From an uncultured virus (IMG/VR IMGVR_UViG_3300033175_000002) (taxonomy: Duplodnaviria > Heunggongvirae > Uroviricota > Caudoviricetes): 20,000 nucleotides of DNA. The translations under genes were made by a program, and so were the position numbers. Positions 9,387-18,443 of this stretch are shown one piece after another. The notes beneath the pieces are model-generated. The model saw nothing but the letters and a program-made list of their open reading frames with translations. It made no database searches and had not been told where the DNA came from. Position 1 is the first letter of the stretch; each line of letters starts with the position of its first letter. The DNA lies in IMG/VR virus record IMGVR_UViG_3300033175_000002; one strand, written 5' to 3'.

Positions 9387-9836
9387 ATGGGGGGAAAAGT
9401 GAATCCAGGTATCCAGGGAGGAGAGCTCCAGGCTTTCCTCGAAACCAAGTTCCCGATGACCACGGGTCGGCTGAGAAGGTTCCGGCCCTACGGACGGTCG
9501 GAACTTGAGGCATTGCTCGGAGTGGTCGTCGAGCCCGGCCCACAGGTGACTCTGCACGCTTTTCCGGGGCTGAGGATCGGAGATCATCAGGTCCCGCCGA
9601 AGTTCTTGCGGGTGTCAAGGGGCCAGATCGGAACCGAGGTGTTTCGCGAGAGCGATAGCGGGATCAAGAACGTCCGGATACTTTCGAAAGACGAGATCGT
9701 TCAGTACTACTACGATCTGGTCGTGGCAGGGTATACCCAGGCCGAGCTCGAGCTGACCCTGAACTCCGACTTTCCGCCGGCCATCGTCCGGGGACTGAAG
9801 AGAGATGCCCCGGTCGTCGAACCGAGGAGGGGATGA
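9387..9836 (+). CDS. Hypothetical protein, 149 aa
   Basis: GGGGTGA RBS then ATG at 9387. Fits the operon packing; no recognisable motif. Confidence 0.7.
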   Translation: MGGKVNPGIQGGELQAFLETKFPMTTGRLRRFRPYGRSELEALLGVVVEPGPQVTLHAFPGLRIGDHQVPPKFLRVSRGQIGTEVFRESDSGIKNVRILSKDEIVQYYYDLVVAGYTQAELELTLNSDFPPAIVRGLKRDAPVVEPRRG

Positions 9837-9837
9837 T

Positions 9838-10185
9838 ATGGGCGGGCTAGAGGTCATCGACGTCCATCTGCTGAAGCTCTCGTTCGCGTTCGGCTTGCTG
9901 CTGATCGTTTCGGGAGCGGCCCACGTCTACATGGGGTGCAAGTTCCGATCCATGGAGGGCTTGCTTCGGATCGTGGCCCAGCAGAACCGGGCTCTGTCTA
10001 CCGAGAGGGCGAACGCCCTGGAGAAGGTTGCCCAGCTTCAGATGACCCTGGAGGAGGACCTCGCCGTCCGGGCGGCCCTGAAGCGGTGCGCGGATCGGGC
10101 GACCTCCCTCGAAGAGCTGAAAGGGTGCGTTCACGAGTACGTTGCCCCGATCGAACCGGTGAAGGGCGGCGAGGGGGATGCATGA
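9838..10185 (+). CDS. Membrane-anchored coiled-coil protein, 115 aa
   Basis: GAGGAGGGG RBS. Hydrophobic segment LSFAFGLLLIVSGAAHVYMG followed by heptad-like helix and a C-x12-C pair (CADRATSLEELKGC). Confidence 0.72.
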   Translation: MGGLEVIDVHLLKLSFAFGLLLIVSGAAHVYMGCKFRSMEGLLRIVAQQNRALSTERANALEKVAQLQMTLEEDLAVRAALKRCADRATSLEELKGCVHEYVAPIEPVKGGEGDA

Positions 10186-10556
10186 GCCCTGAAGCGGTCA
10201 TCTGGATCCTCGGGATGCTGTTCATCATCGTCGGGACCGTTGCCGCATGGCTGGCGTTCAGCTTCCGGCACCTGCGGGGAACGGTGTACGTGTCCCTTGC
10301 GGAGGTCGGGGAGCTGCTCGTCCTCATCGCTCGATGGTACAAACTCGAGGATCCCGAGGAGAAGGCTGCCCGGATCCTAAAGATGGATCGGGAGACGCTG
10401 AAGCTAGAGATCGAGCGGGGCAACCTCATGATGCTGATAGCGCGTCGGGCCGAGGCGATCCTCGCTACGCTGAAATCTGCCGTCCCCGATGCGGGGAGGC
10501 TCATCCACGACATCGAGGACGATTTCTGTGGGGATGGTCGGCAGCGTGGAGGCTGA
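10182..10556 (+). CDS. Single-TM membrane protein, 124 aa (holin-like candidate)
   Basis: ATGA overlap with the upstream gene and GAGGGGG RBS. N-terminal TM AVIWILGMLFIIVGTVAAWLAFSF followed by a charged helical tail. Confidence 0.72.
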   Translation: MSPEAVIWILGMLFIIVGTVAAWLAFSFRHLRGTVYVSLAEVGELLVLIARWYKLEDPEEKAARILKMDRETLKLEIERGNLMMLIARRAEAILATLKSAVPDAGRLIHDIEDDFCGDGRQRGG

Positions 10557-10557
10557 T

Positions 10558-11310
10558 ATGGAGTACATCGTCGAACCGCTGGATTTTCGCAAGTATTTCT
10601 ACACGTGCGTGATCCTGGCGATAGTCTGTCTGCTTACCGGCCTCGCCGCGGTCTCGATCAGCGGTTACGCGGGCGTGCTGGAGACCTCGATCAAGGGGAC
10701 GGGGTCGATGGACGTCCGGCATCATACTGAGAGGGCGGCCGACGTGGCGATGGCCCAGAACGCGACCGTCGTCTACCAGTCCTCGATTACCGGGTCGGTG
10801 GACGATATGGCCCGGGCCTTCTCGACCTCGTTCATGGTCTTTGGCGCGGGAGGGACCCGTCGGGACCAGTACGTCGTCAAAGGGTCTGGGGCCGGCAACA
10901 AAGTCGAGTTCCGAGCTACCCAGCTCTCGGGGGATTTCGTCGGTGAAGGCGATATCGTCTTGAGGATGGAAGACGATCGCGAAAGCTTCGAGTCCCGGAT
11001 AGTCCTCGATTCGACTGCTGGGGAGGCGGTGTTCCAGGGGCGCGTCAAAGCTCGTGACCCCGTCGGAAGGCCGTTCACCGTGGAAGAGATCGAAGCGGTC
11101 GGGGCGTTCCTGATCGAGTCGTACTTGCTGGAGGAGGAGCCTCCGGAGACCGTCGCGAACTGGCTGACGTTCTGCTCGCTCATCAACACCGAGCTCCAGT
11201 CCGTTGCGCCGGGGGCTTACGTCACGCCCGAAGGCTATACCCTGGACGGGTGGGGGAACCTCACCCCGGACCAAGACTGCCCTACCGGCCGATGCCCTTA
11301 CGCGAGCTGA
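10558..11310 (+). CDS. Secreted or membrane-anchored beta-rich protein, 250 aa
   Basis: GGAGG RBS. RK followed by hydrophobic YFYTCVILAIVCLLTGLAAVSI (signal/anchor), then alternating polar/hydrophobic Ser/Gly/Thr-rich strands and C-terminal WLTFC...CPTGRC. Confidence 0.75.
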   Translation: MEYIVEPLDFRKYFYTCVILAIVCLLTGLAAVSISGYAGVLETSIKGTGSMDVRHHTERAADVAMAQNATVVYQSSITGSVDDMARAFSTSFMVFGAGGTRRDQYVVKGSGAGNKVEFRATQLSGDFVGEGDIVLRMEDDRESFESRIVLDSTAGEAVFQGRVKARDPVGRPFTVEEIEAVGAFLIESYLLEEEPPETVANWLTFCSLINTELQSVAPGAYVTPEGYTLDGWGNLTPDQDCPTGRCPYAS

Positions 11311-11321
11311 CGTTCTGGGGA

Positions 11322-11398
11322 GGCCCGATGCCCGATCCGAGGCGTCGGGCCAAACCCACCCGAAATCGAGCAGCATCGCCCTCATCCGCCTATTTTTT
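11322..11398 (+). terminator. Putative terminator of the structural operon
   Basis: 11-bp stem GGCCCGATGCC/GGCGTCGGGCC (11322-11351, one G-U) and a T6 tract at 11393-11398. Confidence 0.45.
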
Positions 11399-11672: not shown

Positions 11673-11690
11673 CCGTAAAGAGTTTATATG
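11673..11690 (+). promoter_or_regulatory. Archaeal BRE/TATA promoter
   Basis: CCGTAAAGAG-TTTATATG about 30 bp before the SWIM gene ATG, in an AT-rich gap. Confidence 0.65.
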
Positions 11691-15400: not shown

Positions 15401-15455
15401 AACAATAATCCTGAGATTTGGAGCCCTGGAGAAAAACCGGGGTTAAAAATTGTAG

Positions 15456-15483
15456 TGTATGTATGTATGTATGTATGTATGTA
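15456..15483. repeat. (TGTA)7 perfect tetranucleotide repeat
   Basis: Read directly: TGTATGTATGTATGTATGTATGTATGTA. Confidence 0.95.
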
Positions 15484-15497
15484 GTCGTAACCATATT

Positions 15498-15545
15498 GAT
15501 AGATAGATAGATAGATATCGATAGATATCGATCGGTTGATAGATC
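15498..15545. repeat. (GATA)5 followed by degenerate GATA/GATC units
   Basis: GATA x5 at 15498-15517, then TC-GATAGATA-TC-GATC-GGTT-GATAGATC. Confidence 0.9.
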
Positions 15546-15614
15546 TTTAGGAGGTCAGTCGATTTGTGCGAGGTTTCGGTCGTCCCACCAGAAAATTGTT
15601 TTATTGCGCCAACA

Positions 15615-15646
15615 ACCACCACCGTAGAAATTTCTAGGGTGGTGGT
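15615..15646. promoter_or_regulatory. 32-bp near-perfect palindrome overlapping the MCM ribosome-binding site
   Basis: ACCACCACCGTAGAAA|TTTCTAGGGTGGTGGT has 15 of 16 positions complementary and ends 3 bp before the TTG start. Confidence 0.75.
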
Positions 15647-17730: not shown

Positions 17731-18027
17731 ATGAATGTAGTACTGTTCACCACGCCCACGTGCAACCGCTGTCCGGCGGTGGCTGCATCCCTGACCTCAG
17801 CCGGAGTACCGTTCTCGAAGGTAGACCTCTCGACACCTGCGGGTCTGGCCGAGCTCCGAGTCCTGGGCTGTTTCGAGCTGGCGGCCCCCATCCTGGGGGT
17901 CTCGGCTGATGGGGAGAAGTGGGTCTTCTACGGCCCGGCTGACCTGCTTGACGGGGACCGGGTTTTTCCACTGGATCGGATTGATCCGAGGCTGGCCCCT
18001 CTCGACACACCTGAGGTGGGCGAGTGA
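17731..18027 (+). CDS. Glutaredoxin/NrdH-like redoxin, 98 aa
   Basis: LFTTPTCNRC active site, VDLSTPAGLAELR and cis-Pro motif AAPIL. Confidence 0.85.
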   Translation: MNVVLFTTPTCNRCPAVAASLTSAGVPFSKVDLSTPAGLAELRVLGCFELAAPILGVSADGEKWVFYGPADLLDGDRVFPLDRIDPRLAPLDTPEVGE

Positions 18028-18443
18028 CCCCTCATCTGCTGAGCGTTGGCCGGACCCGAACCCTTGATCCGGTCGACTACGAGCTGGTGGGGACGGTCAC
18101 CATGGCTACCCTGATCGCCTGGCTCGTCGTATTCGCTGTCCCCGTCCTGGCTCGCCCCGGCCCCCTTGACTCGGCAACCTACTTTGTGATGGTGGCTTTG
18201 CTGGGGGTGGGGCTCGGGCTGGCCGGGTTCTATTCGTTCCTCGTCGACCATCTTCGCCCTGAGACGATGGCGATCATCCGGCGGGGGCTGTACTGTTGTT
18301 CGATCGCGACCGCAGCCTCGGTCGCCTTATATTTGGGGTGGTCTGCTGAGACGTCCAGACTTTTTGCCACGTTCGGTTTCTGGGCGTCGGCATACCTCGC
18401 TGGCATCGATCTGAGTAACAAGTTTGAGTTAGTTCGACATTAG
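18024..18443 (+). CDS. Integral membrane protein with about 4 TM helices, 139 aa
   Basis: GAGGTGG RBS and GTGA overlap with the glutaredoxin stop; four hydrophobic segments. Confidence 0.7.
   Translation: MTPHLLSVGRTRTLDPVDYELVGTVTMATLIAWLVVFAVPVLARPGPLDSATYFVMVALLGVGLGLAGFYSFLVDHLRPETMAIIRRGLYCCSIATAASVALYLGWSAETSRLFATFGFWASAYLAGIDLSNKFELVRH

Follow-up and report, generated by a model that had tools for sequence, protein, structure and literature searches.

How does a tailed virus leave an archaeal cell that is enclosed in a protein sheath? A 2024 review (PMC10791045) describes the players in archaeal virus exit as uncharacterised and archaeal viral holins as elusive. The question arises for a 20,000-nucleotide stretch of an uncultured tailed virus (hereafter the window), which carries three small adjoining genes, here termed A, B and C. 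A first-pass annotation had proposed that they form a new membrane and sheath disruption system. An egress cassette acting on membrane and sheath is still the best reading, given that the genes recur as a conserved unit and that the family of C has been proposed to disrupt the sheath, but it is not entirely new, as both the family and the egress idea were in print in 2024 (PMC11576556). On balance, we lean towards an enzyme-free egress module in the late operon of a contractile-tailed Methanothrix virus, arranged around a mimic of the host sheath protein (SH). What is new here is that C travels with membrane partners.

In the window lie tail and replication genes of a tailed archaeal virus, which encode a tape measure, spike, baseplate J, MCM helicase, processivity factor and resolvase; terminase, capsid and tail sheath are encoded in the overlapping record G002. 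The Pfam tail-sheath search missed this virus's own sheath gene and is therefore unable to sort tail types. Record L001, which matches the window at 100% identity across 11,022 nt, is listed in Table S7 of PMC11576556 as a Methanothrix virus with an SH-like match. Because both this record and a homologue of C, vir525_00064, were assigned to Methanothrix in that work, the host is probably a sheathed Methanothrix.

Several other features of this virus were recorded along the way. Two genes at 265-1157 occupy the usual tail assembly chaperone position ahead of the tape measure, and an intergenic run of short tandem repeats at 15450-15620, before the MCM gene and kept in L002, is a possible replication origin. 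At 17731-18443, a glutaredoxin-like CxxC protein is followed by a multi-pass membrane protein; the two could be a viral thiol-redox pair, which would be relevant to a disulfide-linked sheath. An unannotated 1541-aa ORF lies amid head morphogenesis genes, with short Cys-rich ORFs after it (L009:13668-18293).

The three genes are as tightly packed as was first described, with exact coordinates and real coupling. The upstream gene ends in a TGA at 9834-9836, 1 bp ahead of the ATG of A at 9838; A and B share an ATGA overlap (10182-10185); and B stops at 10556, again 1 bp ahead of the ATG of C at 10558, which itself stops at 11310 (Table 1). A GGAG/GAGG-rich ribosome-binding site is found at the start of each gene. 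The single N-terminal hydrophobic helix claimed for each product was also recovered, scoring 2.11, 2.47 and 2.58 for A, B and C (Kyte-Doolittle, 19-residue windows), and only the tape measure was also positive among the 14 window proteins tested. No family in Pfam, PHROG or NCBIfam gave a name to A, B or C. The 149-aa gene upstream is probably baseplate-associated, judging from its place after baseplate J, and is treated as lying outside the cassette. Downstream of C, the sequence shows the T6 run and, at 11683-11690, a TATA-like TTTATATG; both are compatible with the view that the block ends the virion operon.

Table 1. Positions of the A/B/C block and associated features in the window.
Feature	Position	Strand	Description
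149-aa gene	9387..9836	+	Upstream of A and coupled to it; no family match; downstream of C in L040 and L041
Gene A (115 aa)	9838..10185	+	N-terminal membrane helix, coiled coil and invariant Cys84; conserved upstream partner of SH-like C
Cys84 of A	10087-10089 (codon)	+	End of coiled coil; invariant in 19/19 aligned
Gene B (124 aa)	10182..10556	+	Membrane helix leading into a small helical domain; adjoins C homologues upstream; candidate holin-like or accessory factor
Gene C (250 aa)	10558..11310	+	Predicted member of the viral SH-like (sheath-protein-like) family
Export leader of C (residues 1-38)	10558..10671	+	Basic n-region of KYFY type, then a hydrophobic helix; signal-peptidase cleavage predicted after G-Y-A38
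Beta core of C (residues 40-194)	10675..11139	+	DSSP string divisible into 12 segments, read as six beta-arches
Cys206 of C	11173..11175	+	In DWLxFC-type helix; 49/49 aligned, the only invariant residue
T6 run	11393..11398	+	Candidate archaeal terminator closing the virion operon; read from sequence

On the evidence of homology, C is a member of the published, predicted family of viral SH-like proteins. It shares 41.8% identity over 225 aa (E 6e-49) with vir525_00064, given as a Methanothrix SH-like protein in Supplementary Data 1 of PMC11576556, and the assignment follows from this homology and from the presence of the window-identical record in Table S7. Among annotated phage records, vir525 was the single match at E ≤ 1. 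A profile built from five close homologues collected 55 cluster representatives at E ≤ 0.001, and the alignment of C comprised 49 full-length sequences, with fragments, one fused-looking protein and one false match left out. The 1094-aa profile match P0066 was set aside as spurious, being a repeat protein that does not resemble C. Two narrow pattern scans of genome contigs found no cellular relative of C; one member of the C clusters sits on a 1.9-Mb contig.

The structural model of C (pLDDT 90.5) has a helix at residues 7-35, long kinked strands at 40-194 and a further helix at 199-216. The core can be read as an SH-like six-arch layout, with the pairing of arches taken from the DSSP string and not from coordinates. 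This would match the viral SH-like proteins of PMC11576556, which have two sheets of six antiparallel strands joined by beta-arches, measure 159-288 aa and usually have no cap domain; C likewise lacks a large cap, having a single helix and a short tail behind the core, and its 250 aa lie within that range. The model also suggests that C is non-enzymatic. Foldseek against PDB and a viral library returned no match at E ≤ 0.001, no sequence relative of C was found in PDB, and Atlas look-alikes scored at most 0.83. The best VIA match was the FyuA barrel (Z 7.6, rmsd 4.4, 97 aligned), followed by LptA at 6.4, both in the range of common arrangements. A beta-barrel pore and an LptA-like lipid carrier had been entertained for C and were dropped once its SH identity was known.

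C had been described as a signal or anchor helix followed by a beta-rich domain with a terminal Cys. The leader and beta core stand, but the terminal residues, Cys241/246, are limited to close relatives, and it is Cys206 that is invariant. By eye, a DWLPC end akin to its DWLxFC motif is visible in other viral SH-like proteins of PMC11576556. In the leader, basic residues are followed by the hydrophobic helix, and the small-x-Ala site pattern is found in 34 of the 36 loci analysed; cleavage is predicted from the conservation of this pattern. The 17 C representatives hold 71 N-glycosylation sequons, against a shuffle mean of 26.8, and none of 1000 shuffles reached as many. Together, the leader and the sequon excess clearly mark C as an exported protein and indicate that it is a glycoprotein.

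The 36 loci consist of the window, L002, L003, vir525 and 32 others; L001 and L004, which derive from the window-identical record, were excluded. Gene calling used our own plus-strand script, and grouping by C at 85% identity sorted the loci into 17 groups. Directly upstream of C, a small gene encoding an N-terminal membrane helix is present in 33 of the 35 loci with upstream DNA (15/17 groups), while such small membrane genes make up 6 of the 497 genes more than four places away from C. Conservation of the block as a unit, for which a synteny check had been suggested, is thus upheld insofar as partners recur upstream of C. A-family genes occur in 9/17 groups, B-family genes in 6/17 and either in 12/17; another small membrane gene, which falls into several unrelated types, is present in 12/17. 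Since five of the 17 groups have neither A nor B, and two (the sisters L042 and L043) have C without any membrane neighbour, A and B are dispensable. The partnerless homologues in these sisters lie between a neck-position gene and a tail completion gene (L042:9965-10627, L043:6431-7093) and serve as natural controls for the need of C for its partners.

The place of the block in the late operon shifts. In the window, as in L040, it comes after baseplate J; in vir525 and L035 it comes after terminase and a portal-position gene; in L017, L025 and L029 it lies between head-tail connectors and the major tail protein; and in L015 it is beside a phosphatase gene. This fits a mobile module and not a fixed part of the virion. 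A secreted two-domain DUF7507/DUF11 Ig-like protein is encoded directly after C in L035 (7497-8192) and the vir525 group. Reverse transcriptase genes adjoin tail or cassette genes in two loci (L005:19332-22062, L037:1874-2953), where they may belong to diversity-generating retroelements.

Gene A recurs as a recognisable family: a profile built from the A proteins of other viruses, with that of the window omitted, picked out the window's A from 846 proteins at E 5e-4. In L003, A is represented by a fragment of 36 aa, which scores E 3.4 with the profile and was recognised by eye. A is present once per record in 11 of 19 records, which are exactly those with A beside C, and two complete genomes without A beside C lack it altogether. 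The membrane helix and coiled coil ascribed to A by the first-pass annotation are borne out, but the Cys pair is not, as Cys84 alone is invariant and Cys97 is limited to the window, L002 and the fragment in L003. Paralogy of A and B was considered and not accepted, the profile-profile comparison giving a probability of 10%.

Gene B conforms to its earlier description as a membrane helix with a charged helical tail, being a small protein with at least one membrane helix and a charged C-terminal part. Its model is all-helical (pLDDT 78), and the fold search gave no clear match (best Z 5.7). The B alignment recovered 24 proteins. B has a short and a long subtype, and the short subtype finds the window's B at E 1e-9. 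The short subtype carries a Cys at one aligned position in 14/14 proteins and stands before C without A in all three loci of known context (L015, L029, L030), whereas the long subtype, found together with A, lacks that Cys. No known holin family in Pfam, PHROGs or NCBIfam was matched by B, and the holin-like neighbour genes likewise had no significant holin homology; holins are poorly conserved (PMC10791045). Upstream of the window, in record G002, a 79-aa membrane protein is encoded just ahead of the head genes (L009:19596-19835). It bears a weak resemblance to the gene that opens the L040 cassette (32% over 50 aa, pairwise E 1e-5), scores E 4.6 in the comparison with the larger family, and is a candidate for a displaced holin-like gene of the window virus. 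In 12 loci, C is followed by a membrane-anchored protein of about 80 aa (L038:10642-10881 and homologues), usually with two sequons and an N-in charge pattern; it is a possible fourth cassette member and was not found beside C in the window.

The leader of C appears to covary with the presence of A. A KYFY-type leader motif, which was defined after inspection of the data, occurs in 9/9 groups with A and 0/8 without, and leader identity averages 47% among A-bearing pairs against 22-24% otherwise, while identity of the mature domain is flat across pair classes at 45-46%. On the mature-domain tree, the A-bearing set needs five changes, no fewer than shuffled labels, and its grouping as a single clade was rejected (p-AU 4e-45). 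These comparisons suggest that the link between leader and A is independent of the mature-domain tree, with only two independent pairs on supported branches behind it (sign test p 0.5). Recombination that co-transferred A with the 5' end of C would yield an identical pattern; in three groups B lies between the two genes, which is no more than mild evidence against pure linkage.

How these genes might serve viral exit can be set out in four steps, of which the first is supported by the leader and sequons described above; the SH identity of C likewise has sequence support, and the remainder is proposed. The N-terminal leader would export C, which would be N-glycosylated. Following the published model, the leader would then be cleaved and C would fold into a six-arch SH core, enter the beta-rings of the host by sheet augmentation and cap or weaken the disulfide-linked hoops, because it has no large cap and one conserved Cys as against two opposed Cys in the Methanospirillum SH. 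A may act as a single-pass partner, its coiled coil probably cytoplasmic, that binds the leader of C and either retains C at the membrane or times its release. As signal-peptide cleavage has been proposed to trigger SH folding (PMC10593813), a partner holding the leader would make a natural timer. Finally, B and a separate small membrane protein near the head genes may have a holin-like action on the cytoplasmic membrane. No papain-type protease was found in 18 records, four of them at least 90% complete, with a control that was positive in 3/14 genomes. Peptidase_C71 was also found in 0/18 records, but here the control matched nowhere either.

An alternative we consider unlikely is that A and C form a spanin-like bridge, in which a type II A with an outward coiled coil would be joined by a Cys84-Cys206 disulfide to sheath-embedded C, so that the pair couples membrane and sheath at lysis. 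The single invariant Cys in each family is suggestive, as are the Cys of the short B subtype that stands alone before C and the Dsb-type thiol-exchange proteins of sheathed methanogens; against this, the Cys motif of C is common to other SH-like proteins, which makes a viral partner unnecessary. Each of three Rz-like PHROGs is matched by 11 of 19 A proteins (best E 1e-4), but the window's own A matches none of the three, and among the helix-plus-coiled-coil controls E. coli FtsB matches the same profiles at E 0.003-0.02, with FtsL and AtpF negative; after this result A was no longer labelled Rz-like. Lambda Rz matched its own family at E 1e-79 as a control, and the A profile found none of lambda Rz, T7 gp18.5 and P2 LysB (best E 0.56). 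Nor does the list of ORFs of at least 50 aa hold an o-spanin lipoprotein gene inside or after A, where B and C come next. The first-pass remark that A recalls an inner spanin thus shrinks to a likeness of architecture, namely an i-spanin-like build of N-terminal membrane helix and coiled coil with Cys. No basic residue precedes the helix in 17/19 A proteins, unlike in three control i-spanins, which leans uncertainly towards a cytoplasmic coiled coil; the 2-4 basic residues that the controls also carry behind the helix weaken this reading, and the window's own A has Lys13 ahead of the likely helix. Sequons in A show no excess (6 against 10.1 expected), and the host has no outer membrane to fuse. 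PMC12596118 tabulates 15 new putative spanins across phages and archaeal viruses and presents a spanin phylogeny without archaeal cellular homologues.

Other readings keep C at the sheath and change its purpose. C could jam or divert the sheath-assembly machinery to halt filament growth or to bring virions to the surface, while A and B assist in the membrane. Non-lytic roles of SH-like proteins were named by the authors of PMC11576556 themselves, and with about 160,000 subunits per micrometre of Methanospirillum sheath (PMC10593813), poisoning new hoops alone may open an old sheath too slowly. The coupling to late virion genes and the small holin-shaped genes nevertheless fit exit better than an early take-over, which we regard as rather improbable. 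Superinfection exclusion or receptor masking, where C would remodel or coat the sheath surface so that sibling virions fail to adsorb to the infected cell or its debris, seems to us a little less probable again. It would suit a predicted exported glycoprotein, the several proviruses among the records and the Ig-like secreted gene after C in the vir525 group, but a promoter of its own is not evident for the block, whose genes are coupled in translation to those of the virion, and the sole sigma-70-type site in a promoter scan without archaeal promoters lies on the other strand. That A, B and C are virion components, such as baseplate, fibre or entry proteins, is suggested by the position of the block after baseplate J in the window and L040; it is very improbable given that all three carry a membrane or export helix, that C has its sequon excess, and that the block moves among head, neck and baseplate regions beside different tail genes.

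The egress module that we favour can be placed among known systems. Its closest counterparts are the viral SH-like proteins of the vir134_00026 / vir525_00064 group, proposed as egress factors of viruses of sheathed archaea (PMC11576556), to which C is directly homologous, with the same length range, leader, beta core and proposed role. That study handles SH-like genes singly, whereas here they have conserved A, B and holin-like neighbours and a leader that covaries with A. Neither the neighbours nor the covariation were found in its text (figures aside); the words "holin", "spanin", "transmembrane" and "cysteine" are absent from the main text, and the first two are absent from the four text supplements as well. 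Outside the 2023 compendium of methanogen viruses, which our literature coverage did not include, no account of the multi-gene cassette was found. The SH of Methanospirillum hungatei consists of six beta-arches, with Cys for inter-ring disulfides (PMC10593813), and C can likewise be read as six arches with a leader and Cys; compared by description, however, that SH bears a large cap and its two Cys lie on opposite sides, where in C the core is followed by one helix and a single Cys is conserved. As in lambda S-R-Rz/Rz1 and P2 Y-K-lysA-lysB-lysC, small coupled membrane genes adjoin an exported wall-acting factor, and the block, like the P2 cassette, can sit between head-completion and tail genes. 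Unlike these holin-endolysin-spanin cassettes, A/B/C comes without an enzyme, a lipoprotein o-spanin or an outer membrane, and its Rz-like matches are no better than those of FtsB. PeiW/PeiP pseudomurein endoisopeptidase lysis in Methanobacteriales viruses is likewise an exit module of tailed methanogen viruses, but PeiW and PeiP act on pseudomurein, whereas C is non-enzymatic by its model and the host wall is a protein sheath.

The break-out of tailed archaeal viruses is an open question, and the sheath-mimic idea covers the outer wall only; the conserved membrane partners of C provide concrete candidates for the missing membrane and timing steps. A more ambitious and doubtful extension is that the genes make up a complete enzyme-free lysis cassette, in which a holin-like protein acts alongside a sheath mimic, the mimic poisons the amyloid wall, and a dedicated membrane partner (either A or the B subtype with the Cys) binds the leader or Cys of the mimic and releases it on cue. 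If true, archaea would have a counterpart to holin-triggered release of endolysin, and candidate families for both holin and timer would be named for the first time in tailed viruses whose archaeal hosts lack pseudomurein. As a methanogen, Methanothrix is a major user of acetate, and the route by which its viruses exit therefore bears on the methane ecology of digesters and sediments.
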